Source: a virus. Taken from it: 44,087 bases of DNA. The notes beneath the pieces were generated by a model. The model ran no database searches, was not told where the DNA came from, and was given only the letters and a program-made list of their open reading frames with translations. The stretch's first letter is position 1; each line of letters begins with the position of its first letter. The DNA lies in the IMG/VR virus record IMGVR_UViG_3300025009_000032; one strand, 5' to 3'. This document shows, piece after piece, positions 128 through 44,087 of the stretch. The translations under genes were made by a program, and so were the position numbers.

Positions 128-179
128 GTTATTGCTGTATGAGGCGTTTTGCCTACCGAACAGCACAACACTTGATTAG
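69..179 (+). CDS. Small hypothetical protein (36 aa)
   Basis: ORF MKLSESDVKYIRASKLSDKTLLLYEAF... begins just after the -7 box. The N-terminus resembles the start of small HTH proteins. Below the ORF-track cutoff. Confidence 0.3.
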   Translation: MKLSESDVKYIRASKLSDKTLLLYEAFCLPNSTTLD

Positions 180-207
180 AATTACAAACTTTAAATTAGT
201 ATAAACG

Positions 208-513
208 ATGAAAAAAGATAGCAAAATGACTTATGACAGCGTGTTATATGCTGTTTGCCCAGAGTGCGGTGGCGATGGGAAAGAAACATGCACAAACCCT
301 GACCACGGGCTAATAAGTGCTTTAAGTTGGCACGATATAGGTAGAATTGGCTGTCCATGCTGTGGGCATGACCCAGACCACAAAGTGCCTAACGGTGGTG
401 AATGCGAGGCGTGCGGTGGGACTGGTAAAATGACCATGAAAGACGCTGAGGAATATGTAAGCGGATATGATTATGAAATAGGAATACAGCCTTTAGGGGC
501 AAATTGCATATAA
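208..513 (+). CDS. Cys-rich protein with DnaJ-type CxxCxGxG zinc-finger-like motifs
   Basis: 101 aa containing CPECGGDG, CPCCGHD and CEACGGTG. Locally much more GC-rich than its surroundings. Confidence 0.6.
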   Translation: MKKDSKMTYDSVLYAVCPECGGDGKETCTNPDHGLISALSWHDIGRIGCPCCGHDPDHKVPNGGECEACGGTGKMTMKDAEEYVSGYDYEIGIQPLGANCI

Positions 514-652
514 CACTTGCATTTAAGTATAAGGTAAGCCGAAGCAATATAAATGAGATAAGAAATTATAAAAAGAGAGTGAAAAATAAATAATATGTTA
601 TAAAACATTTATGTAAAATAATCAACCTATAAATCAATCACTTACAAAAAAC

Positions 653-6366: not shown

Positions 6367-7730
6367 GTGTAATAATATCTAAGAAACCCGAAAGGAACGC
6401 ATATTTAGCAAACGGTAATACTGACACCAATAAAGTCAGTCGCTGGGTTGTAGCGTGTAAAGATATACCTATATACTATGAATTACAACGTAAGGACTAC
6501 GGAGGTACTATTATCGGAGTTTACTATGCTTACAATGGACAATCTTTTTATTATCTTAAATTCACTCCTACATCAAATTTTGATGAAACAGTTACAAAAC
6601 AAAATCAAACAACTTATAAAGCAGGAGACTTAGTTTATATAGGTGATGAAAGCACCAATGCAACATATAGTGGGACTTATGAAGTTTTGGATATCGTAAA
6701 TAAAACAACAAATGTCTCACTTGGAACAGCGACAACATTAAACCAAACTAACTATGCCTTAATTTTAAATAAAATAGTTTCAAGTCAAATAAACAATGCC
6801 TTAGAATTAGACATCTTAGGTAATCAGGTTAATACTTTATCCTCATTTAAAACAGCATTTATAAACCTGCCATCAAGTAGAACCAACCATCATGTTGAAG
6901 TTGATATATTAGGAATAAGCATTGATACAAACGGCAATAATATATATAATATCTTAGGAACTATTGATTGTTTTTCTGATAAGGAAGGTAAGATATTAGT
7001 TCAGATTGAAGATTATATCATAACTCTTTTAACTTTTGAAAATAAATATGATTATGAAACATTAAATTGGGCAGATACTTTCAACTCAGGAGCTTTTAAT
7101 ATTGGTTATCGTGAAATTTGGAGCAATAATAAAACAGATGCAAGTCCAAACTTAGACGATAATAAAAACTTTGATGTAACTACTTTCGCTCCTCAAATGA
7201 CGTATTATTCAAATGCTGCTAAACAGATAATGGATTTGTATGGGCAAAATTTAGCAGAGTTTGTTCCTGTACAGAATCAAACATCAGTAAAAGCAAAGGC
7301 ATTAAATGATGAACGTCCTACATGGTTTCGTGGTTTTCCTTTCAGTTTTGACTTTATTTATTCTGATAATTTAGTTGTTGCTGGTTCTAATGGAATACGT
7401 TTAAAGTGGCAGGAATTTGAAGACAACGGCTATTATCAAGGTGGATTAGCAGCGGTTTATCATTATACTGATGTATTAGATAATTCACAAGCTCTTTATG
7501 TTAATAGATGCACTTTAATTGAAAATGATGTAAAATATGAACCAAGTTGCCTTGTTAAGACACTTAGGGTCGTAGTAGTGTATGACCAAGCTACAACATT
7601 AACAAATAATTTTACTGATTATTATGATGACGGTGTCGTAGAACAGGGTATAATGGCAGATATACCAATTATAAAGGTTGTTAATCAACACCCACCAACT
7701 AATGTTAACTCTTTAATTGAATTACCATAA
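6363..7730 (+). CDS. Putative virion structural protein (tail/baseplate-like)
   Basis: 455 aa, N/T/Y-rich with beta-type composition. Sits in the late block. No recognisable motif. Confidence 0.55.
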   Translation: MSVIISKKPERNAYLANGNTDTNKVSRWVVACKDIPIYYELQRKDYGGTIIGVYYAYNGQSFYYLKFTPTSNFDETVTKQNQTTYKAGDLVYIGDESTNATYSGTYEVLDIVNKTTNVSLGTATTLNQTNYALILNKIVSSQINNALELDILGNQVNTLSSFKTAFINLPSSRTNHHVEVDILGISIDTNGNNIYNILGTIDCFSDKEGKILVQIEDYIITLLTFENKYDYETLNWADTFNSGAFNIGYREIWSNNKTDASPNLDDNKNFDVTTFAPQMTYYSNAAKQIMDLYGQNLAEFVPVQNQTSVKAKALNDERPTWFRGFPFSFDFIYSDNLVVAGSNGIRLKWQEFEDNGYYQGGLAAVYHYTDVLDNSQALYVNRCTLIENDVKYEPSCLVKTLRVVVVYDQATTLTNNFTDYYDDGVVEQGIMADIPIIKVVNQHPPTNVNSLIELP

Positions 7731-8197
7731 TGCTAATAGAAATAACAGAAGAATTATTTATTGACGTAGTACAGCCACCAAGAAACCCTATATTTGTTGT
7801 TTGGTTAAATGCTAATAATGGATTATCTTATTGGTGTTTTGGAATCAATACGGTTAACGGCAAAAAAGTTGAAAGTTTAGGAACTAAGGAAGATTTTATA
7901 TTAGACTTGCAAACTACATTAAGGCGAAGTGCAGATATTGGTAAGAAAACCATTAATCAGATTGTCGCTACTTATGAACATGTGGCAAAGTCAAAAGCAG
8001 AATGGATAAGCAAGATTACAGATAGCCCTTCGGTGTGGCTTTATAAAGGAATTAGGACATTAAATGGAATTGATGAAATATTGTGGCAGCAAATAAAGGT
8101 TGGTACTGGGAGTTTTCAGGTTTCCGAAAGTGATTTTAACACAAGCAAATTAACTATAACAATTGATTTACCAGAACAATTTAATCAATCTTACTAA
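7730..8197 (+). CDS. Hypothetical virion-module protein
   Basis: 155-aa ORF whose start abuts the upstream stop. Confidence 0.6.
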   Translation: MLIEITEELFIDVVQPPRNPIFVVWLNANNGLSYWCFGINTVNGKKVESLGTKEDFILDLQTTLRRSADIGKKTINQIVATYEHVAKSKAEWISKITDSPSVWLYKGIRTLNGIDEILWQQIKVGTGSFQVSESDFNTSKLTITIDLPEQFNQSY

Positions 8198-35453: not shown

Positions 35454-36002
35454 ATGAGAGATTCAACAATTATTTATCGTAGTTTTTATGAAGCAATAAA
35501 AGAATTGCCTAAAAAAAATCAAGCTGACCTATGGGAAGCTATATTTGAATACTCATTAAATTTTAATGAAATTAAATTAATTGGTATTTCTGAAACAGTT
35601 TTTAAATTAATAAAACCGCAACTTGATTCTAACATAAAAAAATATAAAGATGGTTGCAAAGGCAAAGAGTATGGTATTCAGGGAGGTAGACCAAAAAAAA
35701 ATAACCCCACAAGAACCCCACAGAAACCCCACAAGAACCCCACAGAAACCCCTAATGATAATGATAATGATAATGTAAATTATAATGTAAATGAAAATGT
35801 AAATGTAAATATTAATGACGTTATAAAATATTTTTCTTTAAAAGGATATACAAAAGAATCTGCAATAAAATTTTATAATTATTATGAAGCTGCAAACTGG
35901 ATTAATAAAGATGGCAAAGAAGTTAAAAACTGGAAATTAACAGCAGTTCAAGTTTGGTTTAAGCCAGAAAATGAAAAACCTAAAAGTAAATTTCAACCAT
36001 AA
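35454..36002 (+). CDS. Putative replication organiser / initiator
   Basis: Two domains joined by a low-complexity linker encoded by iterons. The C-terminal FYNYYEAANWINKDGKEVKNWKLTAVQVWF resembles phage DnaD-like replisome organisers. Directly upstream of the primase-helicase. Confidence 0.5.
   Translation: MRDSTIIYRSFYEAIKELPKKNQADLWEAIFEYSLNFNEIKLIGISETVFKLIKPQLDSNIKKYKDGCKGKEYGIQGGRPKKNNPTRTPQKPHKNPTETPNDNDNDNVNYNVNENVNVNINDVIKYFSLKGYTKESAIKFYNYYEAANWINKDGKEVKNWKLTAVQVWFKPENEKPKSKFQP
35705..35752. repeat. Iteron array: 4.4 x 11-bp units (CCCCACAAGAA / CCCCACAGAAA)
   Basis: Exact alternation of two 11-mers, equivalent to 2 x 22 bp plus CCCC. Confidence 0.9.
35753..35818. repeat. AT-rich microsatellite-like tract (TAATGA x4, then TGTAAA-type repeats)
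   Basis: taatgataatgataatgataatgtaaattataatgtaaatgaaaatgtaaatgtaaat, immediately 3' of the iterons. Confidence 0.85.
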
Positions 36003-38325: not shown

Positions 38326-38399
38326 CAGAGTAAAAATAAGTAATAAAGGAGTAACCTGAAAATCCATAAAGAGTAGGGAAAATTAAAAAAAAATAAAAA

Positions 38400-38834
38400 A
38401 TGGAAGTAGAAAAATTAATTTTTCAGGAAGAAAAAAACCCTGAAAAAAAAGCACAATTAATTAAAGATAATTGTGATGAAGTATTAGAGAATTATTCATA
38501 CACTAAAAAGTTTACCCCTGATGAATTAGATGAATTCAAAGATGAATTATCAGAAGTATCAATTGAAGAAGACAACTTACAGGAGGAGTTAAAAGAGTTG
38601 TCTAAGGGGTTAAAAGAAAAGATTAAACCAAAAAAAGAACAGAAAAAAATCTTATTAAAAAGATTAAGAGAAAAATCAGAAATGATAAAAGATTCTGTTT
38701 ATGTCCTTAAAGATGAAGAAAATTATTGTGTTTATAATTCAGAAGGAGAATTAATTACAAGTAGGAAATTAAAACAAAGTGAAAAACAAAAAACAATTTT
38801 TCAAACAATTAGAAAAACAGGTACAAACAACTAA
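38400..38834 (+). CDS. Hypothetical charged coiled-coil protein
   Basis: 144 aa, E/K-rich. Confidence 0.6.
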   Translation: MEVEKLIFQEEKNPEKKAQLIKDNCDEVLENYSYTKKFTPDELDEFKDELSEVSIEEDNLQEELKELSKGLKEKIKPKKEQKKILLKRLREKSEMIKDSVYVLKDEENYCVYNSEGELITSRKLKQSEKQKTIFQTIRKTGTNN

Positions 38835-40217: not shown

Positions 40218-40364
40218 ATGAGTGATATAATAATATTTATAACAAGTTTAAGCGGATTAGTAATTTCTGTTTATTGCTTACGCCGTATGAAAAAAATAAG
40301 TGATGAAAATAAAAACATATATAAAAAAGTAAATAATAAATATGAATCATGGGAAAAATGGTAG
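40218..40364 (+). CDS. Small single-TM protein (48 aa)
   Basis: IIIFITSLSGLVISVYCL helix. Hand-counted. Confidence 0.4.
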   Translation: MSDIIIFITSLSGLVISVYCLRRMKKISDENKNIYKKVNNKYESWEKW

Positions 40365-40615
40365 CACCATTTAGTAATGCAACAGAAGCTGAAATGTGGT
40401 TGAATCGAAACTGCTATTCGTGTACAACTTCAAAAAATTGTACAGCCTTTAAACATTTAGAAGAAGGTTTTATTTTTGGCGGAATATCTGAAAGGACAGC
40501 ACGTTATATTGGTACAGTAAATATAACGGCTGCGGGTATGGGCTGGCGGCTTTTTCTGCCGCTTGCTTATACCCGTTGTTACCAGCTGGCACGGATTATT
40601 AATAACAAAAGCTAA
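40349..40615 (+). CDS. Hypothetical Cys-containing protein
   Basis: 88 aa. FSNATEAEMWLNRNCYSC.. An alternative start at 40358 overlaps the upstream stop. The last ~28 codons are read through GC-rich element A. Confidence 0.5.
   Translation: MGKMVAPFSNATEAEMWLNRNCYSCTTSKNCTAFKHLEEGFIFGGISERTARYIGTVNITAAGMGWRLFLPLAYTRCYQLARIINNKS
40524..40606 (+). repeat. GC-rich structured element, copy A (hairpin plus L arm)
   Basis: Stem GCGGGTAT (40532-40539) pairs with ATACCCGT (40569-40576). Inner hairpin GGCGGC/GCCGC. The 3' L arm is TGTTACCAGCTGGCAC (40577-40592). Homologous to copy C. Confidence 0.7.
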
Positions 40616-40619
40616 TTAG

Positions 40620-41561
40620 ATGAACGAAACAGTTTTTAATAATTTTTTGAGGGATGGCAAAAACGGCTTGTCCGAAGATTTTAATGTATTATCATTATTT
40701 GATGGTATGAGTTGTGGCCAAATTGCACTTAATAACATAGGGTTGAAGCCTACAAGATATTACGCTGCCGAAATAAAGAAACACGCTATTCAATGCACAT
40801 TAGATAATTTTCCCGATACTATTCAGATTGGAGATGTAACCAAAGTAAATGGCCAAGATTTACCAAAAATAAACTTATTGATTGGTGGTAGCCCTTGCCA
40901 AGATTTTAGTAGAGCAAATAGTGTAAGAGATGGATTGAAAGGTATGAAATCAATGTTATTTTATGAATACATAAGATTACTTGAAGAAACAAAACCAGAT
41001 TACTATTTACTTGAAAATGTGATAATGGATGATTTAGGTTACAATACAATTACTGAAGTATTAGGAACCGAACCAGTAAGATTATGTGGTAGTAAAGTAA
41101 GTGGAGCTTTGAGAGATAGATTATTTTGGACTAATATCGGGCCTGAAAGTTTTGATTTATTTGGAAATAGAAAATGTGCAATACCACAACCGAGAGATAA
41201 AAAAATAATGCTGAATGATGTTTTAGAATACGGATATTCAGATAAGAAAAAGCACACTTGCTTAAATACAAGTTGTGGCCGAGATGCAAACCAAAGATAT
41301 ATGTTGCATAGATACACTACTACTGGAATGACTACCATTATTTACACGGATGAAACAATGGATGAAAGTAAAGGAGTAAGATATTGCACACAAACAGAAT
41401 TAGAAAAACTGCACAATATACCTTTAGGTTATACAAGAAACCTAAATAAAGCACAAGCTGGCAATTTGATTGGAGATGGATGGAGTGTTGGAATAGTTGA
41501 ACATATCTTTTCTTTTTTAAAAGGGGAGGAAAAAAAAATATTTAAAACTGAACCGAAATGA
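40620..41561 (+). CDS. dcm: DNA (cytosine-5)-methyltransferase
   Basis: Motif I LFDGMSCG, motif IV GGSPCQDFS, motif VI LLENV, C-terminal GNLIGDGWSV. No partner endonuclease, so it is an orphan enzyme. Confidence 0.9.
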   Translation: MNETVFNNFLRDGKNGLSEDFNVLSLFDGMSCGQIALNNIGLKPTRYYAAEIKKHAIQCTLDNFPDTIQIGDVTKVNGQDLPKINLLIGGSPCQDFSRANSVRDGLKGMKSMLFYEYIRLLEETKPDYYLLENVIMDDLGYNTITEVLGTEPVRLCGSKVSGALRDRLFWTNIGPESFDLFGNRKCAIPQPRDKKIMLNDVLEYGYSDKKKHTCLNTSCGRDANQRYMLHRYTTTGMTTIIYTDETMDESKGVRYCTQTELEKLHNIPLGYTRNLNKAQAGNLIGDGWSVGIVEHIFSFLKGEEKKIFKTEPK

Positions 41562-41600
41562 TTAATCGAAGAACATCCGTAGTGCTTGCTGGTAACACCT
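41561..41600 (+). repeat. R arm (inverted partial copy of element A 3' block)
   Basis: GTGCTTGCTGGTAACA (41582-41597) is complementary to 40577-40592 at 15 of 16 positions (14 Watson-Crick plus one G:T), with one T:T mismatch. ATTAAT..ATCCG also mirrors 40593-40603. Confidence 0.7.
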
Positions 41601-41697
41601 ACCTACTGCGACCTTGAGATGTTTTGTAAAAACAAGGATAAAAGATATATTAAAATACAATCAATTTGCCCTCCTGACTTTTTAAATTCAATAATAA

Positions 41698-41874
41698 ATG
41701 AAAGAACAAATTAAGCATAATCTAATTAAAACAATATTCTTATTTTTATACATAGGAATATTAACAATTATTAGTTATTATTTATGTACTTACTTGGATA
41801 TTCCAAAATATATGACTTACTTTGTATTTTGTTTTAGTATTTATAGCGGTGTAATGTTTTTTAAAAATGAATAA
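41698..41874 (+). CDS. Small two-TM membrane protein (58 aa)
   Basis: Hand-counted. The stop overlaps the HNH start. Confidence 0.4.
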   Translation: MKEQIKHNLIKTIFLFLYIGILTIISYYLCTYLDIPKYMTYFVFCFSIYSGVMFFKNE

Positions 41875-42199
41875 TATACAGAAGAAATTAGATACTTCAA
41901 CATATTTAAAAGTATGGAATAATAAGCCTCATGAATGCGAAGAGTGCGGTAAATGGTTAGAATATGCAGTTCAAGAAAATGTTATAAAAGATAGGAGTGT
42001 ATTTAGCCATATATTATCAAAAGGTGCATTTCCAGAGCATAGGAACAATGTAGAAAATTTTAACTTACTTTGTTTTGAACACCATCAACAATATGAGTTT
42101 GGAAACAGAAAAAGCATGAAGATATTTAAGAATAATGAGTTAATAATAGATAAATTAAAAAGAAAATATAATAATTTAAAAATTAAATTTTATGAGTGA
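41867..42199 (+). CDS. HNH endonuclease
   Basis: CEECGKWL zinc knuckle, SHILSKG..NNVENFNLLCFEHH (H-N-H). 110 aa, the size of packaging-associated HNH proteins. Confidence 0.8.
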   Translation: MNNIQKKLDTSTYLKVWNNKPHECEECGKWLEYAVQENVIKDRSVFSHILSKGAFPEHRNNVENFNLLCFEHHQQYEFGNRKSMKIFKNNELIIDKLKRKYNNLKIKFYE

Positions 42200-42377
42200 T
42201 AAAAATTCAAATGTAAAACAACTGAGACATGGAACTTTAGAATGGTTAAAAGATTCGCAAGATTTCACATGCAATAAAATTAAAAAAACAGATATAGATT
42301 CAAAGGTAAAACAACTCTTAGATGAAGAGTTGATTGAAAAATGTGAACAAAGTAACGGCTGGCGGTATGGCTTGTAA
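42192..42377 (+). CDS. Hypothetical protein
   Basis: 61 aa. The last 7 codons are read into GC-rich element C. Confidence 0.45.
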   Translation: MSDKNSNVKQLRHGTLEWLKDSQDFTCNKIKKTDIDSKVKQLLDEELIEKCEQSNGWRYGL

Positions 42378-42466
42378 GCCTTGCACTACCACTTCAATTC
42401 CCCGTAATAGCTTCGGCTTATAAGCTATACCGCTTGTTACCTGCTGGGCGGTTTAATTAGCAGGAT
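42354..42466 (+). repeat. GC-rich structured element, copy C (multi-hairpin plus L arm)
   Basis: Stem GGCGGTAT (42361-42368) pairs with ATACCGCT (42427-42434). Inner hairpins are GGCT-TGTA-AGCC (42369-42380) and AGC-TTCG-GCT (42409-42418). The L arm is GTTACCTGCTGGGC (42436-42449). Confidence 0.7.
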
Positions 42467-42482
42467 TTAAAAAAGGAACTAA

Positions 42483-42845
42483 ATGAGTTTAGACGTTTAT
42501 TTAAACAGAAAAAGGTATTTAAGCTACAATGAAGGCAAAACATATACCGAAGATGACGAACAAGTTTACTGGGCAAACATTACCCATAACTTAGGCAAAA
42601 TGGCAGGTGAAGCAGGAATTTACGAAGCACTTTGGCGACCAGAAGAAATTGGAAAAACAAAGGCAAGTGAAATAATTGAATTACTTGAAAAAGGATTGGC
42701 TGACTTAAAAGCAAGACCTGAACATTTTGAGAAATTCAACTCGCCTAATGGATGGGGAATGTATGAACATTTTGTTCCTTTTGTCGAGAAGTATTTAGAA
42801 GCCTGCAAAGTATATCCCGATGCCGTTATCGAAGTGTCAAGGTAG
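42483..42845 (+). CDS. Conserved-looking hypothetical protein
   Basis: 120 aa, relatively GC-rich. NITHNLGKMAGEAGIYEALWRPEE..NGWGMYEHFVPFVEKYLEAC looks like a widespread phage family of unknown function. Confidence 0.65.
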   Translation: MSLDVYLNRKRYLSYNEGKTYTEDDEQVYWANITHNLGKMAGEAGIYEALWRPEEIGKTKASEIIELLEKGLADLKARPEHFEKFNSPNGWGMYEHFVPFVEKYLEACKVYPDAVIEVSR

Positions 42846-42858
42846 CCTTGCAGGTAAC
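42845..42858 (+). repeat. R arm complementary to the copy C L arm
   Basis: GCCTTGCAGGTAAC pairs with 42436-42449: 12 Watson-Crick pairs, one G:T and one T:T, the same geometry as the dcm pair. Confidence 0.65.
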
Positions 42859-42973
42859 TAATGGATATGTTGAAGAGCTAATAGAAAGGTTTAAAAATAA
42901 ATCAATAGTTAATGTTAGGGATTTAAAAACAGAATTAAGTAAAAGAATAATAATTAAAAAAGGAACAGTATAA
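42848..42973 (+). CDS. Possible small ORF with TTG start (41 aa)
   Basis: Reads ..NGYVEELIERFKNKSIVNVRDLKTELSKR.. and ends in a TAATG overlap with the next gene. The start codon is uncertain. Confidence 0.2.
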   Translation: MQVTNGYVEELIERFKNKSIVNVRDLKTELSKRIIIKKGTV

Positions 42974-43738: not shown

Positions 43739-43981
43739 ATGATAACGATTAAGGAATTACAATTAGATGATGCAACAGCATTGAGATTGCTGGAACTGAT
43801 AAAAAAAGAAGAACCTGAAATATGGGAAGTTTTTAAACATGTATTAAAGCAAGCATTAAATACACCTGATGTTAGCGATACTGTTTGCTCTTGCCAAAAA
43901 GCACGATGTAATTACAAAACAGTTAGATTTGGAGGATTGCCAAATTTATGTTCAAACCCTAAAAGAGAAACTATACAATGA
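43739..43981 (+). CDS. Hypothetical protein
   Basis: 80-aa ORF. The last 21 nt lie in the terminal repeat, so its 3' end is also seen at 1-21. Confidence 0.5.
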   Translation: MITIKELQLDDATALRLLELIKKEEPEIWEVFKHVLKQALNTPDVSDTVCSCQKARCNYKTVRFGGLPNLCSNPKRETIQ

Positions 43982-44087
43982 CAGCCAATATTTTAGTATT
44001 ATTAAAATTAAATTAGTATCTTTGTAAAATGAAATTATCAGAATCAGATGTAAAGTATATTAGAGCAAGTAAACTAAGTGACAAAAC
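43961..44087. repeat. Terminal direct repeat, right copy
   Basis: Identical to bases 1-127. Confidence 0.95.

Follow-up and report, generated by a model that had tools for sequence, protein, structure and literature searches.

One stretch of viral DNA of 44,087 nucleotides (IMG/VR record IMGVR_UViG_3300025009_000032; we call this whole stretch the window) carries two accessory genes, dcm and orf120, that are each bracketed by complementary inverted arms attached to similar GC-rich hairpins. The question is whether these brackets delimit mobile units and, if so, how such units would move. An earlier note, made from the sequence alone, had described this layout, could not match it to a described class of element, and offered three hypotheses: (i) long-range RNA stems around individual accessory mRNAs, (ii) invertible segments, and (iii) transposase-less mobile cassettes that deliver accessory genes into phage genomes.

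First, in order to assess whether the observation was real, we re-examined the sequence, and everything that the note described is present in it. The 5' blocks TAACGGCTGCGGGTATGG (40524-40541) and TAACGGCTGGCGGTATGG (42353-42370) are the only two matches in the window, and shuffles gave 0. L arms TTGTTACCWGCTGG lie at 40576 and 42434, and R arms CTTGCWGGTAAC lie at 41585 and 42847. The first L:R pair extends over 16 nt and the second over 14 nt, both with the same T:T mismatch followed by a G:T wobble and with compensatory differences between the two. The shared block falls in different codon phases, AAC starting at codon position 3 in copy A and at position 1 in copy C, and both 5' elements fold strongly (z about -3.8). 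The note had stated that the genome encodes no recombinase or transposase. None was found in the window by Pfam or PHROGs on the 45 plus-strand-dominated ORFs of at least 90 aa upstream of 39.6 kb and on the ORFs of the 39.8-43.4 kb region, or by tblastn with the array-linked recombinase described below.

We then refined the boundaries. The unit runs from the base after a (T)AAC (40528; 42357) to the TAAC that ends the R arm (41596; 42858). A second shared 3' block, ATCGAAG-N7-GTAG, precedes both R arms and consists of the last codons plus stop codon of the cargo. The HNH gene and its small neighbours between the two units are phage backbone and not cassette, and a third cassette of the same build, absent from the note, lies at 128-514. 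Each cassette has a 5' hairpin module starting right after a (T)AAC, an L arm (GTTA...), one cargo ORF, and an R arm ending in TAAC; the arms pair over 14-15 bp with a conserved G:T at position 11. Below, names such as L032 denote fetched viral contigs or loci. The features are as follows.

40349..40527 (+), 5' part of the DUF8270 backbone gene that cassette A splits; the uninterrupted 98-aa protein P0001 is 99% identical over the join.
40524..40527 (+), TAAC at the insertion point of cassette A, present once in the empty site and shared with the TAAC that ends the cassette.
40528..41596 (+), cassette A, a 1,069-bp insertion carrying dcm.
40528..40577 (+), 5' hairpin module of cassette A: GGCT, then an 18-bp imperfect stem with a 7-nt loop, then a final T before the L arm.
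40578..40592 (+), L arm of cassette A, GTTACCAGCTGGCAC, pairing with 41582-41596 with T:T at position 10 and G:T at position 11.
40620..41561 (+), cargo of cassette A, a C-5 cytosine DNA methyltransferase of 313 aa (PF00145, E = 2.8e-27; PHROG 116).
41582..41596 (+), R arm of cassette A, GTGCTTGCTGGTAAC; the cassette ends at the C of TAAC.
41597..41714 (+), 3' part of the split DUF8270 gene.
42353..42356 (+), TAAC at the left junction of cassette C, the same junction sequence as in cassette A.
42357..42858 (+), cassette C, carrying orf120.
42357..42435 (+), 5' hairpin module of cassette C: a 20-bp stem with a roughly 34-nt loop; this module differs between copies of the cassette.
42436..42449 (+), L arm of cassette C, GTTACCTGCTGGGC, pairing with 42845-42858.
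42483..42845 (+), cargo of cassette C, a 120-aa protein of unknown function (PHROG 4019, E = 2e-15), whose TAG stop codon overlaps the first base of the R arm.
42845..42858 (+), R arm of cassette C, GCCTTGCAGGTAAC.
128..514 (+), cassette B: AAC at 125-127, 5' hairpin module 128-242 that holds the start codon, L arm 243-256, Cys-rich 101-aa cargo 208-513, and R arm 501-514; the arm pair GTTATATGCTGTTT / AAATTGCATATAAC has the same T:T and G:T, the junction construct folds with z = -3.3, and no homologue was found in the fetched loci.

In order to determine whether these units are insertions, we looked for genomes lacking them. Two near-identical phage genomes, L032 and L033, match the window at 99.95-100% on both sides of cassette A and read GTAAATATAACACCTACC, with one TAAC where the window has TAAC plus 1,069 bp ending in TAAC. 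Alignment to the window breaks at 40527/41593 with a 4-nt overlap. Filled and empty forms come from sibling samples. Cassette A is thus a DNA insertion that splits a DUF8270 gene. No empty site was found for cassette C. The same two cassettes also occur, at 88-93% identity, in unrelated flanks in a dozen viral contigs, where homology ends exactly at the TAAC end of the R arm and, for dcm, also starts at the left TAAC. Cassette A is 88-92% identical over window positions 40522/40524-41596/41597 to L022, L017, L014 and L026. For cassette C, the L arm, cargo and R arm are 87-93% identical to L023, L027, L024, L020, L015, L028, L013 and L025, with homology ending at 42858 or 42864, and a cassette with the same 14-nt arm sequences lies in an array next to the recombinase gene in L094.

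In these other contigs the cassettes lie in tandem arrays in which neighbours share a single TAAC. We counted 257 arm-bracketed units in 806 kb against 15-24 in shuffles, of which 214 are unique; cassette calling is heuristic, with about 8% false pairs judged from shuffles. Arm positions 5-9 and 12-14 use all four Watson-Crick pairs, position 11 is G:T in 93%, and pairing stops after position 15. With sites defined only by the 5' hairpin, 81.7% of arm cells pair against 64.6 +/- 1.0% in shuffles (0 of 500 as high), while slid controls give 31-40%. Arms of the same cassette pair at 9-10 of 10 positions in 45 of 88 cases, against 2 of 88 for arms of the same junction. The arms therefore covary within a cassette and not across a junction, which fits a folded site that forms when the cassette ends meet. 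Conversely, 5' modules defined by arms alone are strong predicted hairpins (median z of -5), with G at +1 in 94%, T at -1 in 99% and A at -7 in 100%. Junction constructs are predicted to fold as one hairpin, and for cassette A the coding strand is more stable than its complement (-30.1 against -24.9 kcal/mol).

We next asked what lies beside the arrays. In 41 of 43 loci with upstream sequence the arrays lie directly upstream of, and on the strand of, a gene for a 267-aa Xer/IntI-clade tyrosine recombinase, with 183 units upstream against 6 downstream. In most loci the last detected TAAC is 33-60 or about 73 nt before the aligned start of the recombinase, and it is followed by a conserved TATTATATATA in 33 loci. 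The protein scores with XerA, XerC, XerD and integron-integrase models, and its best matches among solved structures are a XerC-like recombinase (4a8e) and IntI4. This link is a correlation. The cultured Polaribacter phages Freya_1 and Freya_10 have 100% and 99.7% identical flanks and differ by a 4,941-bp block inserted at ..ACAAC|ACCCC next to the integrase gene; the block starts GGATATGG and ends ..GCTAAC. Other Freya isolates carry subsets of it at 98.7-100% identity, and Danklef phages share parts of it at 97%. However, the Freya, Ingeline and Danklef integrases are only about 37% identical to the array-linked one, and the authors of the Freya isolates read that integrase as a lysogeny gene (PMC8776804); it could serve both roles. 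Among the cargo, 19 of 147 ORFs are DNA methyltransferases, and Mom, Tad6 and an ADP-ribosyltransferase also occur.

Taken together, we are fairly confident that these are gene cassettes of a phage-borne, integron-like site-specific recombination system, which we could not find described. In this view the two ends of a cassette meet, either in an excised circle or by pairing across the cargo in single-stranded DNA, and the cassette-specific arms (GTTA + N5 + AGT.. and ..ATT + N5 + TAAC) zip into a 14-15-bp stem stacked on the 5' hairpin, giving on the coding strand one bulged, attC-like hairpin about 35 bp long. The recombinase encoded directly downstream of the arrays in related phages would exchange strands at TAAC|G. 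Cassettes would go mainly into the conserved TAAC|TATTATATATA site, which would build arrays, and now and then into another (T)AAC. The three cassettes of the window, where no recombinase was found, would be solo insertions at such secondary sites, presumably made by a recombinase supplied in trans, for example by a co-infecting phage. The cargo is largely DNA methyltransferases and other likely counter-defence genes. The cassette boundaries, the empty site, the arrays, the covariation of arms within cassettes and the link to the recombinase gene rest directly on the sequences compared, whereas recombination itself, a circular intermediate, folding of single-stranded DNA, catalysis of excision and integration by this recombinase, and which strand acts are inferred. 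An exact-pattern scan found no circular-junction sequence. Moreover, the same cargo occurs with unrelated 5' hairpins, so exchange also happens near the L arm or hairpins turn over, which the simple model does not explain.

The interpretation in the earlier note was therefore partly supported. Its hypothesis (iii) is essentially right, although the note could not see that a dedicated recombinase exists, encoded next to cassette arrays in related phages and not in this genome. Its statement that the layout matches no described class needs qualifying, since the layout is that of integron cassettes with several defining differences.

Among the alternatives, RNA-level elements (hypothesis i) survive best but seem unlikely as the main explanation. 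Here the arms would form 5'/3' stems around each cistron and, with the 5' hairpin, direct processing, stability or translation. Both conserved wobbles (arm position 11, and G+1 with T-1) are G:T on the coding strand and would be A:C on the other, which fits an RNA structure as well as single-stranded DNA; the coding strand of cassette A folds better, and start codons often lie in the hairpin loop and stop codons at the edge of the R arm or in TAAC. However, no Rfam family matches, and this reading does not explain why the inserted DNA ends exactly at TAAC, why arrays end at one conserved site before a recombinase gene, or why isolates differ by blocks at that junction. It is not excluded as a secondary role of the same sequences.

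Less likely still is shuffling by homologous or illegitimate recombination between repeated regulatory hairpins, as proposed for the promoter/stem-loop (PeSL) cassettes of T4-type phages, with the neighbouring integrase serving only lysogeny. The 5' modules recur between cassettes, A and C share their outer blocks, the same cargo occurs with different hairpins, and some of the phages encode RecT or ERF recombinases. Nevertheless, insertion A went into a coding sequence that shares only TAAC with the cassette, the arms are cassette-specific and covary, which homology-driven exchange does not need, and array ends sit at a fixed distance from the recombinase gene in dozens of divergent loci.

Single-strand transposition of the IS200/IS605 type by an unseen HUH (Y1) transposase is very unlikely. 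Insertion is 3' of a fixed tetranucleotide without target duplication, the element ends in the same tetranucleotide, which would allow tandem arrays, and there is a sub-terminal hairpin with all cassettes in one orientation. However, no Y1 or HUH protein appeared among the Pfam families reported for the window or the array loci, the hairpin is at the 5' end only where this type has sub-terminal hairpins at both ends, left-right arm complementarity is not part of that mechanism, and the enzyme that does co-occur is a tyrosine recombinase.

Invertible segments (hypothesis ii) or self-splicing introns are the least likely, for although inverted repeats flank each ORF, a GTTAC-type motif is used by Bacteroides invertons, and removing cassette A restores an open reading frame, inversion is not supported, as no inverted copy was seen in 13 or more homologous cassettes, which are all collinear from arm to arm, 250 of 257 cassettes carry the longer ORF on the sense strand, and the asymmetric G (L arm) and T (R arm) at position 11 is kept in 93%, while for introns there is no Rfam ribozyme match even at E up to 10, no possible terminus ends in G (group I) or starts with GUGYG (group II), and cassettes stand in tandem with no exon between them.

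We then compared the system to its closest known counterparts, of which the nearest are integrons, including the CALINs and attC sites reported in phages (Qi et al. 2023, PMC9892861). In both, a tyrosine recombinase of the Xer/IntI clade lies next to a tandem array of mostly single-ORF cassettes, the crossover (inferred here) is at the AAC, and solo cassettes occur at secondary sites. Complementarity belongs to the cassette and only makes sense once its ends are joined, which was the classic argument for circular integron cassettes. The sites here are imperfect inverted repeats in which only AAC/GTT-type triplets are fixed, and a hairpin with a 3-4-nt bulge and fixed G:T wobbles is predicted, though box sizes and geometry differ from attC as judged without an attC model (HattCI or IntegronFinder): the arms are 14-15 bp and cassette-specific and not a 7-bp R box. 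A conserved TAAC|TATTATATATA lies beside the recombinase gene in most loci, but the gene is downstream of the array and on its strand, not divergent from it. The recombinase lacks the IntI-specific insertion: aligned to IntI4 (2a3v), its residues 179-209 stand where IntI4 has 181-259, about 48 residues fewer, and TIGR02249 scores 150.5 bits against a cut-off of 265, with XerA, XerC and XerD models scoring as well or better. In integrons the crossover at G|TT leaves almost the whole site 3' of the ORF, whereas here the hairpin and L arm lie 5' of the ORF and only the 15-nt R arm lies 3' of it, which equals the integron layout with the ORF on the opposite strand. Many cassettes carry their own start codon inside the hairpin loop, the carriers are Flavobacteriia-type phages, and the published CALIN phage P12002L shows no such architecture.

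Xer-exploiting elements also use a Xer-like recombinase. In CTX-phi the site is created by folding single-stranded DNA, and in Acinetobacter pdif modules discrete cargo modules are bracketed by inverted sites and carry no recombinase of their own. Here, however, there is no 28-bp dif-like site with fixed XerC and XerD arms, as in IMEX or pdif modules, since outside GTTA/TAAC and positions 10-12 the arms vary through all four base pairs, and the recombinase is phage-encoded and array-linked and not the host's chromosome-dimer resolvase. In the PeSL mobile regulatory cassettes of T4-type phages (Arbiol et al. 2010), small accessory ORFs flanked by repeated stem-loop elements reportedly move as modules by recombination between the repeated promoter/stem-loop sequences; here there are cassette-specific covarying arms, an exact TAAC junction and a linked tyrosine recombinase. 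The GTTAC(N7)GTAAC motif that the note had mentioned is a real Bacteroides inverton repeat (PMC4611039), and there too the motifs are GTTAC/GTAAC-type, the host phylum is Bacteroidota and a tyrosine recombinase lies nearby. In invertons, however, the motif is a palindrome within each repeat that flanks a promoter which flips, whereas here GTTA and TAAC are the inner ends of two arms separated by a cargo ORF.

It is somewhat more likely than not that this is a previously undescribed, widespread class of gene-capture platform in phages of Flavobacteriia and related hosts, in which a compact Xer-like tyrosine recombinase without the IntI domain uses folded split hairpin sites to assemble and exchange arrays of single-gene cassettes, many of them methyltransferases and other counter-defence genes. 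It would be either a convergent re-invention of the integron or a relative of its Xer-like ancestor, working on the virus side of the arms race. Integrons are the textbook bacterial device for capturing and shuffling genes, and recent work shows that chromosomal integrons store anti-phage defence cassettes (bioRxiv 10.1101/2024.07.02.601686). A phage-borne counterpart, with its own recombinase type and site geometry and with cargo rich in DNA methyltransferases and including at least one known anti-defence protein (Tad6), would show that viruses use the same strategy to stock and swap counter-defence genes. It would explain much of the variability in small unknown ORFs in these phage genomes and give hundreds of neatly delimited candidate anti-defence genes. 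That the recombinase lacks the IntI-specific domain yet seems to act on folded sites bears on how integron integrases evolved from Xer recombinases. The system is directly testable, because cultured isolates (Polaribacter phages Freya_1 to Freya_10 and Danklef) already differ by cassette blocks at the predicted junction. The recombinase family is abundant in metagenomes, with more than 120 clusters at 69% identity or more, which sources label only 'XerD' or 'integrase'.

In order to assess whether the earlier note held, we first re-examined the elements that it had described around the dcm and 120-aa ORFs. The observation is real. Copy A and copy C share TAACGGCTG(SS)GGTATGG, which occurs only twice in the window while shuffles gave 0. 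They also share the block ending in TTGTTACCWGCTGG, and the partners CTTGCWGGTAAC lie just after the dcm ORF and the 120-aa ORF. L1:R1 pair over 16 nt and L2:R2 over 14 nt, and both have the same T:T mismatch followed by a G:T wobble, together with compensatory differences between the cassettes. The shared block sits in different codon phases in the two upstream ORFs, as the note had claimed, and both 5' elements fold well (z about -3.8). A further shared block, ATCGAAG-N7-GTAG, precedes both R arms and consists of the last codons and stop codon of the cargo. Rfam searches of the window (gathering threshold), of the region at E up to 10, and of ten array loci returned no family on the elements. 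The window is a circular assembly of a siphovirus-like phage with 28.6% G+C. Its terminase is closest, at 40% identity, to that of Croceibacter phage P2559S, followed by other phages of Flavobacteriia, and no integrase or transposase is detectable in it by Pfam or PHROGs on the 45 plus-strand-dominated ORFs of at least 90 aa upstream of 39.6 kb and on the ORFs of the 39.8-43.4 kb region, or by tblastn with the array-linked recombinase described below. The features of the window referred to below are as follows.

1-127 and 43961-44087: terminal overlap of 127 nt of the circular assembly.
128-514: cassette B, a third cassette of the same family that was not part of the original finding.
35702-35755: short tandem array of CCCCACA(A/G)(G)AA-type repeats.
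38346-38379 (+): Rfam match to the DUF805b RNA motif (RF02914).
38400-38834: ORF just downstream of that match.
40528-41596: cassette A, the inserted segment carrying dcm.
41559-41561: TGA stop codon of dcm in the window, within 41559-41581, where the other copies read on.
42858 or 42864: end of the homology of cassette C, which carries the 120-aa ORF (orf120), with its copies elsewhere.

We then asked whether the units are discrete DNA insertions. A search for related loci with a spliced DUF8270 model found nothing, but a protein search with the two ORF fragments that flank cassette A, joined together, found an uninterrupted 98-aa DUF8270 protein (P0001). The contigs that encode it (L032 and L033) match the window at 99.95-100% on both sides, and they read GTAAATATAACACCTACC where the window has GTAAATATAAC + 1,069 bp + ACCTACC. 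The inserted segment begins GGCTG and ends GGTAAC, and one TAAC is shared between target and cassette. Filled and empty forms come from sibling samples. An apparent second polymorphism between L033 and the window is only a scaffold gap. Exact-pattern scans of viral and metagenome contigs found no empty site for cassette C. A similar scan of metagenome contigs found no circular junction of cassette A; in a junction of this kind the TAAC of the R arm would be joined to the cassette's own G at +1, for example GCTTGCTGGTAAC|GGCTGCGGG. For cassette B, the terminal overlap of the assembly ends exactly at the left boundary of the cassette (128), as if the assembly graph branched there, which would fit a population polymorphic for this cassette.

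The same cassettes occur elsewhere, in arrays. A scan of viral contigs with the pattern of the 5' block gave 11 chance hits in GC-rich coding DNA and one true hit (locus L012). The 3' block was the productive pattern and returned 19 AT-rich loci, which hold the same two cargo types in different flanks. By blastn, identity to cassette A is 88-92% over window 40522/40524-41596/41597, and identity to cassette C is 87-93%. In the window dcm stops at its TGA, whereas in the other copies of the cassette the frame reads on through ..CLIEERP to the TAG just before the R arm, and the window copy therefore has a slightly truncated C-terminus. In many of these loci the TAAC is followed directly by another G(G/T)TT... 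hairpin module, so cassettes stand head to tail and share one TAAC. Copies of the same cassette (L arm, cargo, R arm) carry unrelated 5' hairpin modules in different contigs, as seen when window 42414-42435 is compared with loci L023, L028, L020 and L024, and window 40563 with locus L029. Only the last 6-7 nt before the L arm are shared, so the hairpin module can be exchanged independently of the cargo. A simple scan for GTTA.../...TAAC arm pairs found 257 units in 806 kb, against 15-24 in shuffled sequence, and 214 of them are unique. The same scan found cassette B, which has the same T:T and G:T signature. It carries a G+C-rich, Cys-rich 101-aa ORF (CxxC repeats, zinc-finger-like) for which no homologue was found in the fetched loci.

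The anatomy of a cassette is as follows. After the TAAC comes G (94%) and then a 5' module of 40-130 nt. The module has 4-5 unpaired bases, or a G:T pair plus a 3-4-nt bulge, then a stem of 12-20 bp and a loop of 7-80 nt; it ends in T (99%), and A at -7 is invariant. In 87% of modules defined by arms alone, at least 11 of the first 12 stem positions pair, and their folding energies have a median z of -5. Next comes the L arm, GTTA-N5-AGT.., followed by the cargo and by the R arm, ..ATT-N5-TAAC. Arm positions 5-9 and 12-14 use all four Watson-Crick pairs, position 11 is G:T in 93%, and pairing stops after position 15. The start codon lies either in the hairpin loop or just after the L arm, and the stop codon lies at the outer edge of the R arm or is the TAA of TAAC. 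The longer ORF is on the sense strand in 250 of 257 cassettes. One of the only 7 exceptions is the cassette next to the recombinase gene in locus L040 (sense-strand coordinates 7450-7957), whose longer ORF (149 aa) is on the antisense strand.

In order to determine whose arms pair, we compared the arms of one cassette with the arms that meet at one junction. The arms of one cassette pair with each other, while the R arm and L arm that meet at one junction do not (mean 9.75 against 5.2 of 10 positions). Complete junction sites with matching arms are rare, which showed that the arms belong to the cassette and not to the junction. In order to avoid circular reasoning, we then defined sites by the 5' hairpin alone and repeated the comparison. 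The L arm of site j pairs at 9-10 of 10 positions with the R arm before site j+1 in 45 of 88 cases, compared with 2 of 88 for the R arm of the same junction. On this unselected set 81.7% of cells are paired, against 64.6 +/- 1.0% in shuffles (0 of 500 as high), the covariation score is 0.417 against 0.143, and slid controls give 31-40%. So the paired structure exists only when the two ends of one cassette come together. Joined end to end, cassettes A, B and C are each predicted to fold into one long bulged hairpin. For cassette A the coding strand is more stable than its complement, and both conserved wobbles are G:T on the coding strand.

The candidate enzyme was found by motif and tblastn. 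In L012, L029 and another array locus, L031, the last cassette is followed by a 267-aa tyrosine recombinase gene (product P0004) on the same strand. Searching viral contigs with it gave 53 loci. In 41 of the 43 loci with usable upstream sequence arm-bracketed units lie upstream, with 183 units upstream against 6 downstream. In most loci the last detected TAAC is 33-60 or about 73 nt before the aligned start of the recombinase. That TAAC is followed by a conserved TATTATATATA in 33 loci, which we regard as a primary, attI-like site. An attI-like motif in the window itself is no commoner than chance (26 matches against 19 expected). Cassettes with the arm sequences of the window's own cassettes occur in such arrays, namely the orf120 arms in L094 and a dcm-type arm pair in L084. 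The protein scores with XerA, XerC, XerD and integron-integrase models, although all scores are below the respective cut-offs. Its best matches among solved structures are a XerC-like recombinase (4a8e) and IntI4, and against IntI4 it lacks about 48 residues where the IntI-specific domain lies. More than 120 clusters at 69% identity or more exist in metagenomes, and sources call them only 'XerD' or 'integrase'. A scan of reference genomes with the recombinase gave only MAG contigs. Two of the three closest relatives (L093 and L094) carry arrays and are labelled Gammaproteobacteria and Bacillota, but their composition and arrays suggest mis-binned phage contigs.

Cultured phages offer a comparison at the same kind of junction. 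The Polaribacter phages Freya_1 (L105) and Freya_10 (L106) have 100% and 99.7% identical flanks. Freya_1 reads ..TTGTTTACAAC|ACCCCTATAAC.. and then the integrase gene (Freya integrase, QQV91304). Freya_10 has a 4,941-bp block with 12 extra ORFs at exactly that point, immediately upstream of the integrase gene; the block begins GGATATGG, ends ..TTGCTAAC, and contains arm-bracketed units. The ten co-isolated Freya phages range from 44.0 to 48.9 kb, and the integrase position shifts with genome length across the other isolates. Other Freya isolates carry subsets of the block at 98.7-100% identity. Danklef, which infects another Polaribacter strain, shares 38% of a 4.2-kb stretch of that block at 97% identity. 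The paper that describes these phages reads the integrase as a sign of a temperate lifestyle and does not mention cassettes (PMC8776804).

The best reading of these results is an integron-like system, and the interpretation of the earlier note, which had proposed long-range RNA stems, invertible segments or transposase-less mobile cassettes, was partly supported. In this view a folded site would form from the joined cassette ends, a Xer-like recombinase would exchange strands at TAAC|G, and insertion would go mainly into the site next to its gene and rarely into other (T)AAC sites. The window phage has no recombinase, so its three cassettes would be solo insertions at such secondary sites. Cassette A split a gene. 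The cassette boundaries, an empty site, the arrays, covariation within cassettes and the link to the recombinase are shown by the comparisons made here, while circles, folding of single strands, catalysis and choice of strand are inferred. One loose end is that the same cargo occurs with unrelated 5' hairpins. Among the alternatives, an RNA role for the same stems remains possible, although it does not explain the DNA boundaries or the recombinase link. Homology-driven shuffling does not explain an insertion that shares only TAAC with its target, or the covarying arms. An intron would fit the frames, but the termini, the tandem arrays and the lack of a ribozyme speak against it. No HUH transposase was found among the Pfam families reported for the window or the array loci, and no inverted copy was found among the homologous cassettes.

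Although the logic is that of integrons, several of their defining features fail. There is no IntI domain, the recombinase gene is downstream of the array and on its strand, relative to the cargo the site is split the other way, and the arms are long and cassette-specific. Phage CALINs have been reported (Qi et al. 2023, PMC9892861), but their example in this host group, Polaribacter phage P12002L, lacks this architecture and shows only chance-level arm pairs. Full-text literature searches found no description of this system, although the collection searched is incomplete and leaves out most subscription journals, so that a prior description cannot be ruled out.

Of 147 cargo ORFs, 19 are DNA methyltransferases (9 N6_N4, 8 C-5, one MT-A70 and one Dam). 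There are also Mom, the Thoeris inhibitor Tad6, an ADP-ribosyltransferase and a tRNA-synthetase-like protein, while most cargo ORFs have no family. The tRNA-synthetase-like protein is a 442-aa class-I (Met-type) tRNA-synthetase-like ORF in an array cassette of locus L017 (3896-5221, minus strand), an unusual cargo among mostly 60-150-aa proteins, and the Tad6 (anti-Thoeris) homologue is carried by another cassette. Elsewhere in the window, the CCCCACA(A/G)(G)AA-type repeats form one of the few G+C-rich patches in the genome, and the match to the DUF805b RNA motif scores 37 bits against a gathering score of 35.6 (E = 5e-7).
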